A stretch of 54,252 bases of DNA from Omnitrophica bacterium GWA2_41_15 (GCA_919902105.1 CAKKQO010000004.1:4180-58431), one strand, 5' to 3'. Shown: positions 2,485 through 48,566, counted from the stretch's first letter. The notes: generated from the letters alone by a model not told the origin. Numbers and translations: made by a program.

Positions 2485-2555
2485 AGCGAGCGAGGGGAAT
2501 CGAACCCCCATACCCAGCTTGGGAAGCTGGTATTCTACCACTGAATTACGCTCGC
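2485..2555 (-). tRNA. tRNA-Gly (anticodon CCC), no encoded CCA
   Basis: Manual cloverleaf: acceptor GCGAGCG/CGCTCGC, D arm ATTC-AGTGGTA-GAAT, anticodon arm CCAGC-TTCCCAA-GCTGG, T arm GGGGG-TTCGATT-CCCCT, discriminator U. Confidence 0.85.
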
Positions 2556-3895: not shown

Positions 3896-4552
3896 TTATT
3901 TTTTGTTCAATTTCCCTTTAAGATTTCTTACGGCATTCTGGATGTTTTTTGCGCGGCAGACGGCTCGCACTACCGCAACCCTATCTGCGCCTGCTCCTAA
4001 AACATCGCTTAGATTATTAGGATTGATTCCGCCGATAGCTACAAAAGGAATCCTTATTTTATTTTTCACTTTCCTTATCAAAGATAAGCCTACTGCCTTA
4101 TATTCGGGCTTAGTCGGAGTTGCAAAAACCGGGCCGACGCTAATATAGTCTGAGCCGAGTTTTTCGGCAAAAAACGCTTGTTTTAAACTATGCGTGGAAA
4201 GGCCGATGATTTTTTCTCGGCCTAATAATTTACGCGCATAGGCATAAGGTATATCATCTTGTCCCAAATGCACACCATCGGCATTTACCAACAGGGCAAC
4301 GTCGAGCCTATCGTTTATTATGAAAATCACATTAAATCTTTTAGCGAGGCGGGCTATTCGGCAGGCATCTTCGAGCACTTTAGATAATTCCATAATCCTG
4401 CCTGACCGGTAGGCAGGATTAAATCTTAACTGGATTATGTCTGCGCCGCCTGAAATTACATTTTCTGCCGCAGAAACAATATTCCTGCCGTCTAATGCAG
4501 CATAATCAAGTATACAGTAAAGTTTAGACTGAACTAATGATTTCTTTTTCAA
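3896..4552 (-). CDS. thiE: thiamine-phosphate synthase ThiE
   Basis: 218 aa TMP-TENI fold: IIQLR, GVHLGQDD, GPVFATPTK, AIGGI motifs. Confidence 0.85.
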   Translation of the reverse strand: MKKKSLVQSKLYCILDYAALDGRNIVSAAENVISGGADIIQLRFNPAYRSGRIMELSKVLEDACRIARLAKRFNVIFIINDRLDVALLVNADGVHLGQDDIPYAYARKLLGREKIIGLSTHSLKQAFFAEKLGSDYISVGPVFATPTKPEYKAVGLSLIRKVKNKIRIPFVAIGGINPNNLSDVLGAGADRVAVVRAVCRAKNIQNAVRNLKGKLNKK

Positions 4553-4943
4553 GAGAATAAAGCCTGAATCTTATTTTTTTAAATCTATCTGAAAGTTTTA
4601 CATCGATTAATTTAGTAAATTCCTCTAAAACCCTAAGGCCCTCTTTTGCGCGTTGAAAGTTCGCTAAGAAAATATCGGCGACGCTATTGCGTTTCTTTTC
4701 TAAATAATCCGGCGCCCTTCCTAAATCGCTGCTGCTATCGCGAAATTTAAGGACTTTTACCGTATCTAAGTTTTCGAGTATTGCTGCCTGCGTAATCGCG
4801 TGCCTTAATCTTTTAATTTTCTTGGTAAGGCGGGCGTTTCTTAAGATAAATCTTGCCGTATCTTCACAAACCCTCAAGCCCTCTTTTACGCGGTTTAAAT
4901 TCGCATCAATTACGGAATATATCTTATCTTGGTTTTTTCTCAA
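4524..4943 (-). CDS. ThiE-associated helical protein (ThiD2-like domain), internally duplicated
   Basis: Two copies of the motif LNRVKEGLRVCED / FQRAKEGLRVLEE; overlaps thiE start; family assignment from memory only. Confidence 0.4.
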   Translation of the reverse strand: MRKNQDKIYSVIDANLNRVKEGLRVCEDTARFILRNARLTKKIKRLRHAITQAAILENLDTVKVLKFRDSSSDLGRAPDYLEKKRNSVADIFLANFQRAKEGLRVLEEFTKLIDVKLSDRFKKIRFRLYSLEKEIISSV

Positions 4944-26141: not shown

Positions 26142-26176
26142 TTATAATCATTATACTGTCGCCTTTGCCGTATAAA

Positions 26177-26207
26177 CAAAAAAGCCGGACAATTAAGTCC
26201 GGCTTTT
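26177..26207 (-). terminator. bidirectional intrinsic terminator after the Met-rich membrane protein gene
   Basis: AGCCGGAC-aattaa-GTCCGGCT flanked by A-run and T-run. Confidence 0.7.
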
Positions 26208-26232
26208 ATAGTTCAACTATTAGGATAAGCTA

Positions 26233-26457
26233 TTATTTAGCCGCAGGCATTTCTGTGCCGCTAACCGGGCATTCCATTGCACCCTTGCCGCCCATCATCC
26301 CGCTCATTGCGCCCTTGCCGCTTTTCCAGCATAAATGTTTCTTGCTCATATATAAGTGTTTGCAAGCCACTCCGACAAGCAAGACTATCGCAATAATAGT
26401 CAGTAAGATATTGGTGTATTTAAGAGAAGACAAAATTCCCTTTTCTTCATTCGCCAT
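26233..26457 (-). CDS. small membrane protein with Met/Gly-rich C-terminal tail (74 aa)
   Basis: GAGGAGG 5 nt upstream of the ATG at 26457; one TM; tail GKGAMSGMMGGKGAMECPVSGTEMP. Confidence 0.5.
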   Translation of the reverse strand: MANEEKGILSSLKYTNILLTIIAIVLLVGVACKHLYMSKKHLCWKSGKGAMSGMMGGKGAMECPVSGTEMPAAK

Positions 26458-26572
26458 ACCCACCTCCTCAATCCCGCGAGTAGCGGAAAAATTTAAAGCC
26501 GATTTATTTCTTAATGCGTATTGTACCTTAATATTGCTTATCTCGCAAGTAAAATTATGGTATGCTTATAAT

Positions 26573-27471
26573 ATGGACGCCTGCCAAAAAGAATTTAACC
26601 GCCTTAAAAGAATAAAGATATTGGTGGCTAAAAATTTTTCTCATTTCGGGCTGAACAAAAAACAGGAAATCAAGCGCCTCATTTATGAAATCTCCAAACG
26701 CGACAACTTAAACCCGGCTAAGGTTATCCGCGGCGCTCAAACAGGGGAATTTAACAGGATAAAAGAATATCTTATAAGCCGCCGTTTTCCTTATGCATAT
26801 GCTCATCGCGAAATCTCAAAAATTTACCTGCCCAGCATCGAACTTGCGGCTCTCGACGCCTTTAATCCTCCGAAGAACAAGTTTTATCCTAAAAAAATCT
26901 TTATAGAAAGACAAGTTAAAGGCTCTTATTTAGCCAAACGTTTTAAAAACGCTTTCCCAAAGGCAGATTTTTGCCAAATTTCGACGCTAAAAGATTACCT
27001 CAAGCCAGAAAAAAGATACGACACTGTAGATTATAACGCGCGGCGTGACACGGTTTTTAATGTGCGCAAGCAGGATATCGGATAGGGTTTCATTTTGACC
27101 CGGTGTTTTATTTTCCCGCCACTAATACTTCGGCGGGATGGAAGAAAGAATACGCTCAGGTTATCGAGAACCTTTTTGCTCACGTTAAGCCGCGTTCTCT
27201 TGCCTGGATAAGTATCGACACCTTTCGCTTTAAGCCGGAATTAAAAAAGATCATTGAGGCGCGTTTTCCGCAAAATAGAATTTTAGACGAAGAACTGCTT
27301 CTCGGCTACGACAATAAATTAAGATACCCTGATAGCCTAAGATACGATATTTATAAATTCCTTATTGAAACTATGAAAAAACACGCCAAGCAATTACCAA
27401 TTTACCTCTGTATGGAAGAAAAAGCTGTCTGGCAAAGACTTAACCTACGTTTCCCATTCTATATAAGATAG
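26573..27471 (+). pseudogene. spore-photoproduct-lyase-family radical SAM gene with internal deletion of the CX3CX2C core and a frameshift
   Basis: Frame 1 ends ...YNARRDTVFNVRKQDIG* (compare B. subtilis SplB YRNAKSTLVIGVRK). Frame 2 opens at 27061 as CAQAGYRIGFHFDPVFY...GWKKEY...LAWISIDTFRFKPELKKIIEARFP (compare SplB AKAGYPLGF...EGWEEGY). About 170 aa between the two are missing. Confidence 0.65.
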
Positions 27472-28316
27472 CCCGCGATTAGGGTAAAGCTGACAAAAAG
27501 ATAGATAATTAATGTGTTGCGGATGGTGGGGATAAATTGCGTTGCCTTATCGTAGGTTTTTCTTGCTTTTAGAGCGGTGTAGACAGCGAAAGGAAAGATA
27601 AGGAAAACCAAGATAGAGAATATCGGGATTAGTTTTAGGGCAAAAGCAATTGCCAGCATAAGGAAACTAAGAAAAATCACTGCCTGATAAAGTATAATCG
27701 CGCGCTGCTTGCCTAATCTGACCACCAGGTTTTTTTTACCAACCAGCCCATCCTGATAATAATCCGGAATTTCATTAACCAACGCCAAGGCGAGTATCAA
27801 GAAACCAAAAATTAAGGAAACTAAAAATGGCCCCAGGCCGATTCGTTGCGCCTGGACATAATAACTGCCTAAAACCATTAAAGGGCCGTAGGCAAAAAAT
27901 ATGGCGAACTCACCAAAACCGCGATAAGCCAATCTTAGTGGCGGGCCGACATAGAAGCAGGCGGCGATAAATCCCAAAATGGCAAATACGGCAATGCTTA
28001 AGCCGATTTTTAGGCTAAGGTATCCGGCAATAATCCCCGCTAAAATAAAAGCTAAACACCCCAGGTAAAATATATAATCAGGGATATTTTCTTTATCCTC
28101 GAGAAAAACCCTATCCGAGCCAAGCCGGGCATCAAAATACTCATTAAACGTTTCTACGCCTACCAATGATAAGGCAATCCCGATAAATGCTACGGCAAAG
28201 TAGTAAAAATTAAATGTCTTATGCGCGGAGAAAGACATGCTTGCGCCAAGAAAAAAAGGCAGGATTCCCGCAAACAGAAAAAACCGATAGCGCAGGAGCC
28301 GAAAAAAAGAAAACAT
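27459..28316 (-). CDS. UbiA-superfamily aromatic prenyltransferase, MenA-like
   Basis: NEYFDARLGSD and DYYQDGLVGKKNLVVRLG motifs (compare E. coli MenA NDYGDAVKGSD); 8-9 TM helices. Confidence 0.75.
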   Translation of the reverse strand: MFSFFRLLRYRFFLFAGILPFFLGASMSFSAHKTFNFYYFAVAFIGIALSLVGVETFNEYFDARLGSDRVFLEDKENIPDYIFYLGCLAFILAGIIAGYLSLKIGLSIAVFAILGFIAACFYVGPPLRLAYRGFGEFAIFFAYGPLMVLGSYYVQAQRIGLGPFLVSLIFGFLILALALVNEIPDYYQDGLVGKKNLVVRLGKQRAIILYQAVIFLSFLMLAIAFALKLIPIFSILVFLIFPFAVYTALKARKTYDKATQFIPTIRNTLIIYLFVSFTLIAGYLI

Positions 28317-28322
28317 TTAAGG

Positions 28323-29312
28323 TTAGATATCTAATTCTATCCAGGTATTGGATTGGGCCAAGAGGGTATGGTCTTTGATGACTTTTTGCGTAAATTCAAG
28401 CACATCTCTCCTCTTCCAGGCCTGTTTATAGCGCTGCCAAATTTCTTTTAAAGAGTGTTTTCTTAAATCTCCGCATAGATAGGGAAGCGGTCCGATAAGT
28501 TTTACTTTGCCGTTGGGGATGATTAAGAGACTGGCCGAAGGATTATACATGCGGTATTTTAATTCTTCCACGACATCATAAGGATAATAATATACCTTCA
28601 TCTTGCCTTTATACTCTGCTTCTTTTTTCTGCAAAACATTAAAAAAATCTTCGTAATCTTTCTCGCTTGGTGCGAGTTTATCCCAATTTTTAGCGGCTCT
28701 GCCGATGCGCATAATCTTTCCGGTGTAAAAGCCGTATACGCCCAAAGAGGCGGCGAGGTCGATCATTTGGGAGGTTTCTTTTAGGTTAAATTTTGTAGGT
28801 ACAAAGACTATCTCAGTATTTATTCCTCTTTTTACCAAGCGTTTTACCGCATCTATTGCTTTCTGCCAGTCTCCTTTTATACGCATTGCTTCATGCGTTT
28901 TGGGGGTTACGCCGTCTATACTTATCTGCACAGAGCGGAAACCGAACTCTTTAAACTTGTCTGCTGTTTTTTCATCAATGAAGTGGCCGTTGGTCTCTAC
29001 TTTGAGGCTTATTCCGTTATCGGTAATTACTTTAGCCGCATCAAAGAAATACGGACAAAGCATGGGCTCGCCGCCGGAAATCGCCGCGTAAGGAATATCC
29101 ATCTCAGTAATCTGACGGCATAAATCTAAGGCTTCATCTTTGGTTAATTCATTAGGCATTTGATACCCCGCCTCTTCACAGCAGTGCAGGCAGTCTAAAT
29201 TACAGAGGGAATTTATCTGCCAGGCGATAAATAAAGGGGAAGATAAATCTTCGATGTCAACCGAAGACGGCCTTACGTCTTGCTCTAAGAGGGAAACTTC
29301 TTTTACTTTCAT
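28323..29312 (-). CDS. radical SAM enzyme of the PqqE/NirJ/MoaA class, without SPASM auxiliary-cluster cysteines
   Basis: CNLDCLHC (CX3CX2C), SGGEP, ETNG motifs; only one Cys (YLCGDL) after the core. Confidence 0.8.
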   Translation of the reverse strand: MKVKEVSLLEQDVRPSSVDIEDLSSPLFIAWQINSLCNLDCLHCCEEAGYQMPNELTKDEALDLCRQITEMDIPYAAISGGEPMLCPYFFDAAKVITDNGISLKVETNGHFIDEKTADKFKEFGFRSVQISIDGVTPKTHEAMRIKGDWQKAIDAVKRLVKRGINTEIVFVPTKFNLKETSQMIDLAASLGVYGFYTGKIMRIGRAAKNWDKLAPSEKDYEDFFNVLQKKEAEYKGKMKVYYYPYDVVEELKYRMYNPSASLLIIPNGKVKLIGPLPYLCGDLRKHSLKEIWQRYKQAWKRRDVLEFTQKVIKDHTLLAQSNTWIELDI

Positions 29313-29314
29313 TG

Positions 29315-29563
29315 TTATTTAACAACTTTTAAGTTTTCTAATTCTTGCAGAAATTCTGAAACTTCTTTTTCAATAGTTTCAGCATCAGAGCGATAATTCT
29401 CTTCTAAGTCGTCAATGATTTCTTCTTTGCTCTTGCCTTGTTTAATTAAGTTTAAAATCTCGCCTGCGGTTTCATTAGTTACATAGACCTTTTCTTTTAG
29501 CGTATCAAAAACCACAGAGCCAAACTTCTCATTACGCAACTTTACAAATTCAGCAAATTGCAT
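29315..29563 (-). CDS. PqqD-family peptide chaperone (RiPP recognition element)
   Basis: 82 aa; VTNETAGEILNLIKQGKSKEEIIDDLEENY...EKEVSEFLQEL parallels PqqD LNETAAAILELVDG...DVVEFL. Confidence 0.8.
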   Translation of the reverse strand: MQFAEFVKLRNEKFGSVVFDTLKEKVYVTNETAGEILNLIKQGKSKEEIIDDLEENYRSDAETIEKEVSEFLQELENLKVVK

Positions 29564-29616
29564 TTAGAGCACCTCTTAAGTTATCTTAAACTAAAGAATC
29601 TGGATTAAATGAAGAA

Positions 29617-29778
29617 TTAAGTAAATCTTATGTATGGCTGGGCCATTATCTTTCCGGATACATCCTCCAGGCATGGTTTTTGCCACTTTTTTTTGCTTAA
29701 CTCTGGATGGTGTTTCTCCGAAGCCCGCATATGCCTGCTCGCAAGCGGTTCCTCTTTATTAATTTCTCTTGTCTGCAT
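29617..29778 (-). CDS. PqqA-like precursor peptide candidate (53 aa)
   Basis: GGAGGAG SD before the ATG at 29778; the C-terminal WQKPCLEDVSGKIMAQPYIRFT aligns gaplessly with PqqA WKKPAFIDLRLGLEVTLYISNR. Confidence 0.55.
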   Translation of the reverse strand: MQTREINKEEPLASRHMRASEKHHPELSKKKWQKPCLEDVSGKIMAQPYIRFT

Positions 29779-29842
29779 AACTCCTCCTCTTTTTCTTAAC
29801 ACCGAGTATCTTAACATAAAAATTTTTTTTGTCCATTGTTTT

Positions 29843-30628
29843 TTAGGTTATTTTAAAATATCCGCGCGGAGTAATCATATAGCCGTTTTTTAAGTAGGTT
29901 TTGGAATTACCCACTATCACGGTGGTAGTCATATCAATATTGTCTAACGCCATTGCTTTTTTTAAAGTAGTGATGATAATTTCTTGGCCGGAGCGGAAGG
30001 CATTTTTAACTATGCCGACGGGCGTATTAAGCGGCAGGCGCTTGGCAATAATCCGCCAGGCCATTTTTAGCGGTTCTATCCGCTTTTTACTTTTCGGGTT
30101 ATATAGCACAATTACAAAATCGGATTGGGAGGCCGCCTTCAATCTTTTTATGATATCATTTTTATCTGTCAAGAGGTCGCTGAGCGAGATTACCGCAAAA
30201 TCATTAGCAAGCGGCGCTCCTAAAAGGCTTGCGCAGGCTGTCGCTGATGGCACGCCGGGAATGACTTCTATTCTTAGTGTATCTATGTCTTTTTTATTTA
30301 AAAGCTCTAATACCAAACCAGCCATGCCGTAGATACCGGGGTCACCGCTTGAGATAACAGAAACGTTTTTGCCTTCTTTGCCTTTCTGTATCGCTTCTTG
30401 CGCCCGTTTTATTTCCTCGGTCATGCCTGAAGAAATAACCTCTTTGCCCTTAGTTAAATTTCCCAACAGCGCGATATAGGTCTTATAACCGACAATAACT
30501 TGCGAGCATTTTATTGTCTGCCTTGCTTTTTGCGTTAGGCAGCTTAAGTCGCCCGGCCCGATGCCAACGATGCTTAATTTTCCTTGGCAACTGCCACGGT
30601 AACGCCGTTGATGGCTTGTTTTTGACAT
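29843..30628 (-). CDS. cbiH: cobalt-factor III / precorrin-3B C17-methyltransferase
   Basis: LSIVGIGPGDLSCLT, SSGDPGIYG tetrapyrrole methylase motifs; order within the cbi cluster. Confidence 0.85.
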   Translation of the reverse strand: MSKTSHQRRYRGSCQGKLSIVGIGPGDLSCLTQKARQTIKCSQVIVGYKTYIALLGNLTKGKEVISSGMTEEIKRAQEAIQKGKEGKNVSVISSGDPGIYGMAGLVLELLNKKDIDTLRIEVIPGVPSATACASLLGAPLANDFAVISLSDLLTDKNDIIKRLKAASQSDFVIVLYNPKSKKRIEPLKMAWRIIAKRLPLNTPVGIVKNAFRSGQEIIITTLKKAMALDNIDMTTTVIVGNSKTYLKNGYMITPRGYFKIT

Positions 30629-40963: not shown

Positions 40964-42274
40964 CTATGCTCGATATTCATACCTAAGATTATTCATCAAT
41001 TCCTTGCGCAAAATATATTTTTCCTTGCCTTGGGCTATCAGTTTAAAGGCGTGGCGGATTATCGCCTTATAAAAATTGCAGAATACTGATTTTTGGCGAA
41101 ATTTCCCCAGCGAATATAATTCTGCCGGACAAGGCGAGCCGCAGATATTTCGGAATTCGCAAAGATTACATTCTTCTACATTTTCCACAAACCTGCCGCG
41201 TACTTTTTTAAATGGCGCTGAATCCAACGCCTGCTTTATGCCGCCTTTGAAGATGTTGCCGCCAGAAAAGTCCTTTAACCCGATAAATTCGCCGCAGGGA
41301 ATCATTTCTCCTTTAGCGGTAATGGTAAAAAAACACCTTCCGCCTCCGCAAGGCGAGATATCACACATCAGCCGGCGGGCAAACGGTGAAACAATACCCA
41401 GAAGAATATTAGCAAAGTTGGCGATAATTATCTGCCTGCCTGTCTTCTGTGTAAGCGCAATCGCTGTATCCACTGCTTTTATAAACTCTTTAGTTAGCGC
41501 ATTTTCGTCCGGTTTTAATTTTCGCGAGTATTTCTGCGTAAAACGCATGGGGTTTAACAACAGGCAGGGAACTTTTTTGTTATGCATGAATTTTACGATT
41601 TTAGAAAGATTCGCAACGTTATATTTAGTAAGCGTCGTAATCACGTTTAGTCCGGCATAGCCGTCAAACCATTCCAGCGCCTTTATGACTTTATTGAAAT
41701 TACCGCTCCTTAAACGGTTATTTATTTTCCGGCTATACGAATCAAGCGACAGCCCTACGCCAACTCGGTTTTTAATCAAAAACTCCACGTCTTCTTTTTC
41801 CAGGAGAATGCCGTTTGTCTGCAGACCGAATAAAAATTTATCTTTGAACTTTTCTATTGCGGAAAATACAACGTCTTTCACTAATAAGGGTTCACTGGCA
41901 TGGAAAACGATTACTAATTTTTTACGCCGTAGCCCGATATATTGATAAATTTTATTTAAAATAAGTTCGAGTTCATTTTTTGTCATTGAGCGGCCGTCTC
42001 TACGTATCTTAGGCGGCACATAACAATACGGGCAATTGGCGTTGCATCTATCAGTAGGGTCTATATATACGGCGGACAGCTCTACGCCAAAACGGAAATC
42101 GCGCATTTCTCTATCTAAGCCGGCACCTATCCGGTTATAAGACGATAAAACATTCCTTGGAATTATGGTTGAGCCATTATTGGATTTGGGCAATATTGAC
42201 CAAAAAACATTATCGGCATCAAGGGCAATTTTACGATTATTTGTATTTTCGAATATATTTAAGCCGGTTTGCAT
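40964..42274 (-). CDS. radical SAM / SPASM-domain peptide-maturase-like enzyme
   Basis: CNANCPYC (CX3CX2C); C-terminal CDISPCGGGRC...IPCGEF...CNLCEFRNICGSPCPAE...FCNFY; start set at the ATG at 42274 (GGAG upstream), the ORF track starts at the GTG at 42298. Confidence 0.8.
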   Translation of the reverse strand: MQTGLNIFENTNNRKIALDADNVFWSILPKSNNGSTIIPRNVLSSYNRIGAGLDREMRDFRFGVELSAVYIDPTDRCNANCPYCYVPPKIRRDGRSMTKNELELILNKIYQYIGLRRKKLVIVFHASEPLLVKDVVFSAIEKFKDKFLFGLQTNGILLEKEDVEFLIKNRVGVGLSLDSYSRKINNRLRSGNFNKVIKALEWFDGYAGLNVITTLTKYNVANLSKIVKFMHNKKVPCLLLNPMRFTQKYSRKLKPDENALTKEFIKAVDTAIALTQKTGRQIIIANFANILLGIVSPFARRLMCDISPCGGGRCFFTITAKGEMIPCGEFIGLKDFSGGNIFKGGIKQALDSAPFKKVRGRFVENVEECNLCEFRNICGSPCPAELYSLGKFRQKSVFCNFYKAIIRHAFKLIAQGKEKYILRKELMNNLRYEYRA

Positions 42275-42312
42275 ATTTGCTCCGTGATTAACCAACACGT
42301 TGAACGTAATAC

Positions 42313-48357: not shown

Positions 48358-48406
48358 TCGCACCCTAATTTAAGCTATCGCCCTTCCGCGCGGAAATAAT
48401 CCCAAA

Positions 48407-48550
48407 TATAGGCAGGTCTTCTGGCTACCGGATCACTCTAATTGCCAAGCCTTCCCGGCCCGAAACTTCTGGTCAGTGGCATCTTTGGCTTTCGTCCCCG
48501 GATACAGCGGCGGGACCGCTCCTGCTTCCACAGGATTCCCTTTACCTATA
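48407..48550 (-). promoter_or_regulatory. cobalamin riboswitch aptamer
   Basis: Minus-sense UAUAGGUAAAGGGAAUCCUGUGGAAGCAGGAGCGGUCCCGCCGCUGUA...GCCACUG...GGGAAGGC...AGCCAGAAGACCUGCCUAUA: conserved GGGAA, GCCACUG and AGCCAG-N-ACCUGCC (B12 box) blocks, P1 UAUAGG/CCUAUA. Confidence 0.85.
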
Positions 48551-48566
48551 ACTAATTGTTCTTATA

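Follow-up and report, generated by a model that had tools for sequence, protein, structure and literature searches.

To our knowledge, the only cofactors built by the joint action of a PqqD-family peptide chaperone and a radical S-adenosylmethionine (rSAM) enzyme are pyrroloquinoline quinone (PQQ) and mycofactocin. In the PqqA precursor of M. extorquens (leader MKWAAPIVSEICVGM), PqqE cross-links Glu16 to Tyr20, and Trp3 sits 17 residues before this tyrosine. Tyrosine also feeds prenylated quinones, namely plastoquinone and tocopherol via homogentisate and the caldariellaquinone of Sulfolobus, which give a precedent for converting a tyrosine ring into the prenylated head group of a membrane quinone through a UbiA-family enzyme; these pathways start from free tyrosine and use neither PqqD nor rSAM proteins. 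Here, we describe a cassette of four genes in a 54,252-nucleotide stretch of DNA from Omnitrophica bacterium GWA2_41_15 (GCA_919902105.1, CAKKQO010000004.1:4180-58431; referred to as the window) that encodes a short peptide, a PqqD-like protein, an rSAM enzyme and a UbiA-superfamily prenyltransferase. With a probability of roughly 55%, we read it as a self-contained cassette for a peptide-derived, polyprenylated membrane molecule, most likely an oxygen-independent, quinone-like carrier serving quinone-dependent respiratory enzymes.

The precursor peptide had been called PqqA-like in an initial reading of the DNA alone (referred to as the sequence-only reading), and alignment bears this out, as its Trp-x-x-Pro motif and its 17-residue Trp-to-Tyr spacing equal those of PqqA exactly. 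Counted from the C-terminus, Trp(-22), Pro(-19) and Tyr(-5) align with their PqqA counterparts without a gap, with an invariant Met four residues before the Tyr, at the position of the cross-linked Glu of PqqA. Across the family, the last 22 residues follow the consensus W-x-[KRTA]-P-x-[LFIW]-x-D-V-S-x-x-[VI]-M-A-Q-P-Y-I-R-F-T-stop, in which Trp(-22) and Pro(-19) are invariant across loci and the C-terminal MAQPYIRFT is identical in all 52 loci found via the rSAM enzyme. The same core recurs in five loci of a second gene layout (type B, see below) that were found via a different paralogue, rSAM3, and whose peptides end in ...EDVSEQVMAQPYIRFT. This invariance is an observation rather than a search artefact, because the first search pattern left the core out. 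Among the 53 distinct DNA versions compared, synonymous codons vary at every core position. Ala, Pro, Thr and Val are each written with four codons and Arg with five, and every one of the three stop codons occurs. Since synonymous positions vary freely while the residues are fixed, selection acts on the protein; as judged from this codon comparison, the precursor is shown to be translated and strongly constrained by protein-level purifying selection. The core is held constant although the enzymes of the two layouts are only 38-43% identical, and the invariance of all nine residues together with the fixed C-terminus argues, at the level of sequence conservation, that much of the nonapeptide may be retained or used rather than only a head group being excised. 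No Pfam or NCBIfam model, the PqqA family included, matches the precursor, and a protein-database search with the peptide returned only 19 entries, all labelled 'hypothetical', because such small ORFs (open reading frames) are seldom called.

Two scans followed the cassette into other genomes. The enzyme-side scan, an rSAM alignment over one genome per GTDB species that used two peptide patterns, yielded 60 true loci, which is a lower bound, all of them in metagenome-assembled genomes (MAGs). The peptide-side scan of metagenome contigs with the back-translated core plus stop codon matched at least 120 contigs, and those with enough flank carry the enzymes, save three orphans. Among the GTDB loci with room, a small ORF lies 5' of the PqqD gene in all, and the PqqD, rSAM and UbiA genes are co-linear in nearly all; the PqqD gene is syntenic in at least 55 loci, and rSAM homologues number in the hundreds at 56-69% identity. 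Altogether, the cassette genes stand together in at least about 180 genomic and metagenomic loci outside the window. The sequence-only reading had made its proposal depend on synteny in relatives, and the genes prove syntenic in essentially every relative with enough sequence; the cassette is a conserved unit and no chance neighbourhood. The loci are labelled as Planctomycetota (including Sedimentisphaerales and Brocadiaceae bins), Omnitrophota, Elusimicrobia, Lentisphaerae, Acidobacteriota/Aminicenantia, WOR-3, Calditrichaceae, Thermodesulfobacteriota, Nitrospirota, Nitrospinota and a few archaeal bins, and some of these MAG labels may be binning errors. The generic gene set of a RiPP, a peptide synthesised by the ribosome and modified after translation, is present: an encoded precursor, a RiPP recognition element (RRE) and a modifying enzyme, all co-located. 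The orphan peptide copies (L108, L144 and L166) have no cassette within their available flanks, and the copy in L108 follows a 2Fe-2S/NuoG-like gene, as does the peptide in L001. The exception to co-linearity is L022, a 3.6-kb contig of an Omnitrophota bin, in which a family rSAM gene is followed directly by a polyprenyl synthase gene and which holds no PqqD, peptide or UbiA gene; rearrangement or faulty assembly may account for it.

Two layouts can be distinguished. In type A, as in the window, the order is peptide, PqqD, rSAM, UbiA. The metagenome scan revealed type B, with the order PqqD, rSAM1, UbiA, rSAM2, peptide, rSAM3, which is common in high-GC soil contigs (L083, L080, L151, L187-L191 and about 90 others among the contigs listed). 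Its stop and start codons overlap, the UbiA gene overlapping both flanking rSAM genes. The two types share about 40% identity in rSAM, 43% in UbiA and 38% in PqqD, and the three type B paralogues are themselves about 40% identical to one another; rSAM3 has 2032 homologues at E <= 1e-30, the named ones coming from Casimicrobiaceae/Burkholderiales MAGs. A tandem rSAM pair also occurs in three type A loci (L019, L031 and L036), where the copies are 55-66% identical and both carry CxxxCxxC.

The assignments of the PqqD-like, rSAM and UbiA proteins in the sequence-only reading held at the superfamily level and went no further, all equivalog scores lying below cutoff. The PqqD-like protein reaches 57.5 bits with PF05402 (threshold 23.4, E = 1.8e-15), 37.3 bits with the PqqD equivalog TIGR03859 (cutoff 46) and 16.5 bits with the MftB equivalog (cutoff 33). 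The rSAM enzyme matches PF04055 (E = 4.6e-26) and has the characters of its superfamily, a CxxxCxxC motif (CNLDCLHCC at residues 37-45, with C37, C41 and C44 invariant in the family alignment) and a fold matching SkfB and PqqE. The nearest folds to its AlphaFold2 (AF2) model (predicted local distance difference test, pLDDT, 87) are SkfB (E = 1.6e-18), PqqE and SuiB, and a sequence search of the PDB likewise returned SkfB (E = 3.8e-25) and PqqE. The C-terminal domain is SPASM/twitch-like without the cluster cysteines: the SPASM Pfam match stays at 14.7 bits, below 21.5, one near-invariant Cys (C280) is found there, and the type B paralogues have not even that. The equivalog scores of the rSAM enzyme are 131.5 bits for AhbD (the best NCBIfam match, cutoff 500), 124.3 for MftC (the second, cutoff 265), 105.7 for NirJ (515), 82.6 for AhbC (650) and 77.4 for PqqE TIGR02109 (381). 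The view that this is no tetrapyrrole enzyme is thus upheld by an AhbD score far short of its cutoff and by nearest folds that are peptide maturases. PQQ, mycofactocin, AhbD/NirJ and GeoRSP were each tried as a home for the cassette and rejected, with all equivalog hidden Markov model (HMM) scores far below cutoff.

Compared with PQQ biosynthesis, the cassette shares a short precursor made on the ribosome, containing W-x-x-P and a Tyr that lies 17 residues after the Trp and 5 from the C-terminus, a separate chaperone with the PqqD-family domain PF05402, a PqqE-like rSAM fold, and a core whose conservation resembles that of a cofactor precursor. It differs in that the invariant Met replaces the Glu of PqqA, leaving no Glu-X3-Tyr, and in that its rSAM enzyme is without the SPASM auxiliary-cluster cysteines and scores far below PqqE. 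PqqB, PqqC and PqqF are likewise missing from the cassette, as judged from the scanned window ORFs and the recurrent neighbour families: neither PqqB nor PqqC was detected among the scanned ORFs of the window (about 25 window ORFs lay outside the scan) or among the neighbour families recurring across the related loci. In contrast to the PQQ system, the cassette adds a membrane prenyltransferase, sits in respiratory operons and is hosted largely by anaerobes or facultative anaerobes. With mycofactocin, a peptide-derived redox cofactor, it has in common a PqqD-family chaperone and an rSAM enzyme that would act on a conserved C-terminal, Tyr-containing core, whereas both proteins fall below the MftC and MftB cutoffs, the peptide ends in IRFT with a Tyr that is not C-terminal (MftA ends in Gly-Val-Tyr), MftD, MftE and MftF are absent, and the tailoring step would be prenylation rather than glycosylation. 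The first steps of the cassette would work like those of the PQQ and mycofactocin pathways, yet it scores outside both families. SkfB, SuiB and CteB are rSAM RiPP maturases that act on peptides and give the best PDB matches in sequence and fold, but in them the RRE is fused to the enzyme and auxiliary Fe-S clusters are present, and their products are antimicrobial or signalling peptides whose cores vary.

The prenyltransferase matches PF01040 (E = 1e-22) and has the characters of the UbiA superfamily, a multi-helix membrane fold and two intact Asp-rich motifs. Both motifs named in the sequence-only reading, NEYFDARLGSD and DYYQDGLVGKKNLVVRLG, are found and are kept across the family, whose conserved stretches read NEyFDxxxGxD, YRGxGE and NExPDyxqDxLvGKrN. 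It resembles MenA and UBIAD1 in its UbiA fold, in the motifs N-E/D-x-x-D-x-x-x-G-x-D and N-x-x-x-D-x-x-x-D, and in the frequent adjacency of a long-chain polyprenyl-diphosphate synthase; its best match in both sequence and fold is UBIAD1, the human MenA homologue, and the nearest folds to its all-helical AF2 model (pLDDT 92) are UBIAD1 (8djk), digeranylgeranylglyceryl phosphate synthase and AfUbiA. The scores nonetheless remain below all MenA cutoffs (105 bits vs 264 for NF004751, 78.6 vs 102.15 for TIGR00751). In a search of 1.84 billion representatives, the cassette clade forms about 25 clusters at 38-48% identity, followed by a long tail at 29-36% that outscores it on the MenA models; similarity between the clade and these MenA-like proteins falls gradually, with no sharp gap. 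The enzyme thus stands apart from MenA in a sub-clade of its own, as the proposal of the sequence-only reading requires, and its gene accompanies those for the peptide, the PqqD protein and the rSAM enzyme but never men or mqn genes, no family of which recurs within 10 kb in the related loci. Isoprenoid lipidation of a ribosomal peptide, as proposed for the cassette, is carried out by ComQ on ComX, by F-type cyanobactin enzymes and by lanthipeptide prenyltransferases, but these are soluble ABBA or isoprenyl-synthase-like proteins with short prenyl donors, whereas in the cassette an integral-membrane protein of the UbiA family is paired with a long-chain synthase.

The surroundings of the related loci point to respiration. 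Neighbour families were obtained by clustering the neighbours of related loci, followed by HMM identification, so that the counts given here rest on simple ORF calling and on the clustering of short contigs. A complete nqrABCDEF set, encoding NQR, an NADH:quinone oxidoreductase that translocates Na+, lies directly upstream of the peptide in seven loci (L006, L007, L014, L015, L016, L026 and L027). Three further loci, L047 (a Brocadiaceae bin), L048 and L163, have the cassette within the operon itself, between nqrE and nqrF; the gaps in L048 are at most 13 nt, and there NqrB and NqrD pass the NCBIfam cutoffs and NqrE and NqrF are 1-10 bits short. NqrF follows UbiA directly in L052 and L053 and some 1.2 kb downstream in L055. 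This link to NQR is seen in about 14 of about 40 informative GTDB loci and in 10 of 19 type A metagenome contigs (among the contigs listed). A long-chain polyprenyl-diphosphate synthase (HepT/IspB-like) occurs directly after UbiA or before nqrA in about 19 loci, and ApbE also recurs near type A cassettes. Always directly after nqrF in these operons, whether the cassette precedes or follows nqrF, there is a protein of about 150 residues that ends in KKIKAMDYF and matches no family (L047:13049-13504, L048:13011-13463, L014:8705-9139, L006:3277-3738 and L027:8910-9401).

Type B loci have other partners. Among the contigs listed, a NapC/NirT tetrahaem cytochrome (PF03264, E = 2.6e-56) is present in 19 loci, and MtrA-like decahaem cytochromes and MtrB/PioB porins in 8-11. 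In five long type B contigs a three-subunit succinate:quinone oxidoreductase/fumarate reductase, with a cytochrome b subunit of 268-271 aa, lies upstream on the same strand, SdhC-SdhA-SdhB being directly adjacent in L189 and L191 and separated by dctPQM in L187, L188 and L190; L187 and L188 are near-identical, and both have DsbB downstream. These neighbours are otherwise unrelated, and their common ground is the quinone pool of the membrane together with the polyprenyl side chain of the quinones. A membrane redox cofactor is favoured over a prenylated antibiotic by the NQR, polyprenyl-diphosphate synthase, NapC/NirT, Frd/Sdh and DsbB neighbours. Pseudomonadota lost low-potential, menaquinone-type quinones at an early stage, and fumarate reduction depends on such quinones (PMC11707229); CymA, of the NapC/NirT family, is menaquinol-specific (PMC3340143). 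Both points fit a role as a low-potential quinone in the hosts of type B. A literature search on the quinones of Omnitrophota, Phycisphaerae and Casimicrobiaceae returned nothing.

Based on these data, the following route may be proposed. Briefly, after translation of the 53-residue precursor, the PqqD protein would bind the W-x-K-P...DVS leader and present the core to the rSAM enzyme, as suggested by its family membership and by the PqqA-like spacing of the peptide. The rSAM enzyme would then modify the core at or around Tyr(-5), most likely by forming a C-C cross-link between Met(-9) and Tyr(-5), the analogue of the Glu16-Tyr20 bond made by PqqE; the three rSAM paralogues of type B suggest up to three radical steps there. 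Subsequently, the MenA/UBIAD1-like enzyme would place a long polyprenyl chain, supplied by the often adjacent polyprenyl-diphosphate synthase, on the electron-rich aromatic ring. Going by the gene neighbourhood, the lipid-anchored product would work with NQR, with NapC/NirT-type quinol dehydrogenases and with fumarate reductase/succinate dehydrogenase, and it is probably a redox-active, lipid-anchored carrier. A more far-reaching version, which we regard as possible but on the doubtful side, is an oxygen-independent ribosomal-peptide route to a respiratory lipoquinone, a third beside the chorismate-derived men/mqn and the ubi routes. Here, radical SAM chemistry would build the head group from the Tyr, and perhaps the Met, of the nonapeptide before MenA-like prenylation, and anaerobic Planctomycetota, Omnitrophota, Elusimicrobia and Lentisphaerae as well as ubiquinone-type Burkholderiales would gain a carrier of low potential that serves NQR, fumarate reductase and electron export through NapC/Mtr.

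Several points weigh against a quinone-like carrier. About 60% of the type A loci with usable flanks have no respiratory neighbour, and within the window itself there is no nqr, polyprenyl-synthase or apbE gene. The rSAM enzyme is without the auxiliary clusters used in PqqE-type oxidative cross-linking, so its radical chemistry cannot simply copy that of PqqE, and we know of no UbiA-family enzyme that takes a peptide. No protease, hydroxylase, methyltransferase or transporter recurs among the neighbours of the related loci (a methyltransferase follows UbiA in L056 only, and an HdrB/HdrA-like pair is found in L020 only), and, with no protease, hydroxylase or methyltransferase consistently linked, it is hard to see how Tyr would become a true quinone. 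Moreover, the carriers are all uncultured MAGs or metagenome contigs, and each chemical step, from the cross-link through the prenyl acceptor to the product, is inferred.

The missing protease would fit a product that is no redox carrier at all, a cross-linked and UbiA-prenylated nonapeptide that stays anchored in the membrane and might act as a small subunit, assembly factor or regulator of respiratory complexes. Nine invariant core residues and an invariant stop position, kept beside enzymes only about 40% identical, would suit a retained peptide contacting a conserved partner, and the cassette is operonic with nqr; yet its prenyltransferase falls in the MenA/UBIAD1 branch, whose substrates are quinol head groups, and NQR, NapC/NirT, Sdh/Frd and DsbB share the quinone pool and no common subunit, which leaves this lipidated peptide unlikely in our judgement. 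Another option, already listed in the sequence-only reading, is that the UbiA gene is an ordinary menA making menaquinone from 1,4-dihydroxy-2-naphthoate, merely co-located or co-regulated with genes for an unrelated peptide product. Its Asp-rich motifs are of the MenA type, its best HMM matches are MenA models, and a menA gene would be expected next to NQR and a polyprenyl synthase. This option is disfavoured and quite improbable, as the gene stays together with those for the peptide and rSAM enzyme in both gene orders across those at least about 180 loci and is translationally interleaved with rSAM genes in both, in type B even between two of them with overlapping stop and start codons. In addition, the protein is below every MenA cutoff while its next-tier relatives are more MenA-like than the cassette clade, no men or mqn gene recurs within 10 kb, and the Burkholderiales hosts of type B are generally without menaquinone (PMC11707229).

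A secreted or antimicrobial prenylated RiPP would account for the generic gene set of short precursor, RRE and rSAM enzyme, but a core identical across more than ten phyla contrasts with antibiotic RiPPs, whose cores are hypervariable. Genes for an exporter, a leader protease or immunity do not recur among the related loci, and the operons in which the cassette is embedded are respiratory housekeeping ones; such a function is very improbable. Least credible is a module for corrinoid or tetrapyrrole tailoring, which the sequence-only reading had raised since the operon follows cbiH. The window cassette does end a riboswitch-headed cobalamin cluster, the best NCBIfam match of its rSAM enzyme is AhbD at 131 bits, and cobO and a NirD/L-like gene lie near the cassette of L002. 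The adjacency to cbi genes is nevertheless peculiar to the window, no cbi or cob family recurring among the related loci, and this want of conserved synteny already goes most of the way to refuting the idea; the AhbD, NirJ and AhbC scores (83-131 bits) are far from their cutoffs of 500-650, the SPASM cysteines are absent, and a dedicated peptide and RRE would be left unexplained. The placement after cbiH is probably incidental. L002/L018, from an Aminicenantia bin, is the only related locus besides the window with tetrapyrrole-related neighbours, its cassette being flanked by cobO (corrinoid adenosyltransferase) and a fused NirD/L-like (AhbA/B-type) regulator or decarboxylase.

In the window, the ORF check returned the four minus-strand ORFs with the sizes, coordinates and gaps first noted, 2 nt between the PqqD and rSAM genes and 6 nt between the rSAM and UbiA genes (Table 1). 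An alternative start of the peptide ORF at 29817 would give 66 aa; the ATG at 29778 has the strong Shine-Dalgarno sequence. Consensus scans for promoters and terminators near the cassette found as many sites as expected in shuffled sequence.

Table 1. Features of the cassette, in window coordinates counted from its first nucleotide.
Feature	Position	Strand	Basis or detail
Precursor peptide gene, 53 aa	29617..29778	-	ORF; same 53-aa product also called by public gene caller
Precursor layout: Lys-rich leader, W-Q-K-P-C-L-E-D-V-S-G-K-I, core M-A-Q-P-Y-I-R-F-T-stop	29617..29778	-	
Invariant core MAQPYIRFT	29620..29646	-	Met 29644-29646, Tyr 29632-29634
Peptide stop codon, immediately after core	29617-29619	-	
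W-x-K-P leader motif	29674..29685	-	Trp 29683-29685
Shine-Dalgarno sequence AGAGGAGGAG of peptide gene	29781..29790	-	Read off sequence; strong
Promoter-like site between cbiH and peptide	29808..29835	-	TGGACA, 16 nt with TG, TAAGAT; weak evidence
PqqD-family peptide chaperone (RiPP recognition element), 82 aa	29315..29563	-	PF05402
Radical SAM enzyme, 329 aa	28323..29312	-	PF04055
UbiA-superfamily, MenA/UBIAD1-like membrane polyprenyltransferase, 285 aa	27459..28316	-	PF01040

The upstream neighbour is cbiH, as had been stated (29843-30628; TIGR01466, 305.8 bits vs a cutoff of 246). With it ends, just before the peptide, a cluster of about 19 kb for cobalamin biosynthesis and cobalt transport that is co-directional with the cassette and headed by a cobalamin riboswitch (RF00174, 94 bits, 48394-48564, minus strand), in the order cobC, cobU, cobT, cobS, cobD, cobQ, an rSAM/SPASM gene, cbiB, cbiA, cbiX, cbiC, cbiMQO, cbiD, cbiE, cbiL, cbiF, cbiG, cbiH. 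The product of the rSAM/SPASM gene between cobQ and cbiB is a second radical SAM protein, which carries a SPASM domain (444 aa, 40964-42298, minus strand). On the other side, two plus-strand ORFs, 26165-27085 and 27103-27471, converge on the cassette, neither matching Pfam or NCBIfam; the latter extends 13 nt into the 3' end of the UbiA gene, and a strong hairpin followed by a T-run is found at 26180-26207. Farther away, a thiamine-phosphate synthase (PRK02615-like) is spread over two overlapping minus-strand ORFs (3896-4552 and 4524-4943) that cover profile positions 8-137 and 142-346, a split that could be a frameshift, a sequencing error or natural, and a tRNA gene (2485-2555, minus strand) lies between thiC and an M23/LysM peptidase gene.

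The cassette as such matches nothing in NCBIfam or Pfam, and a full-text literature search returned no description of a UbiA-family enzyme in a RiPP-type cassette or of such a cassette inside nqr or sdh operons. Thousands of homologues in soils and sediments give the system a wide reach, and any small ORF ending in MAQPYIRFT-stop serves as a simple search marker. Even the conservative reading, a membrane lipopeptide tied to respiratory complexes, would be new RiPP chemistry. Should the product prove to be a redox-active lipid, it would represent a new class of membrane electron carrier, the first from a ribosomal peptide and the first peptide substrate of a UbiA-family enzyme, and could explain NQR, fumarate reductase and Mtr-type extracellular electron transfer in some uncultured anaerobes and in some ubiquinone-type Burkholderiales.

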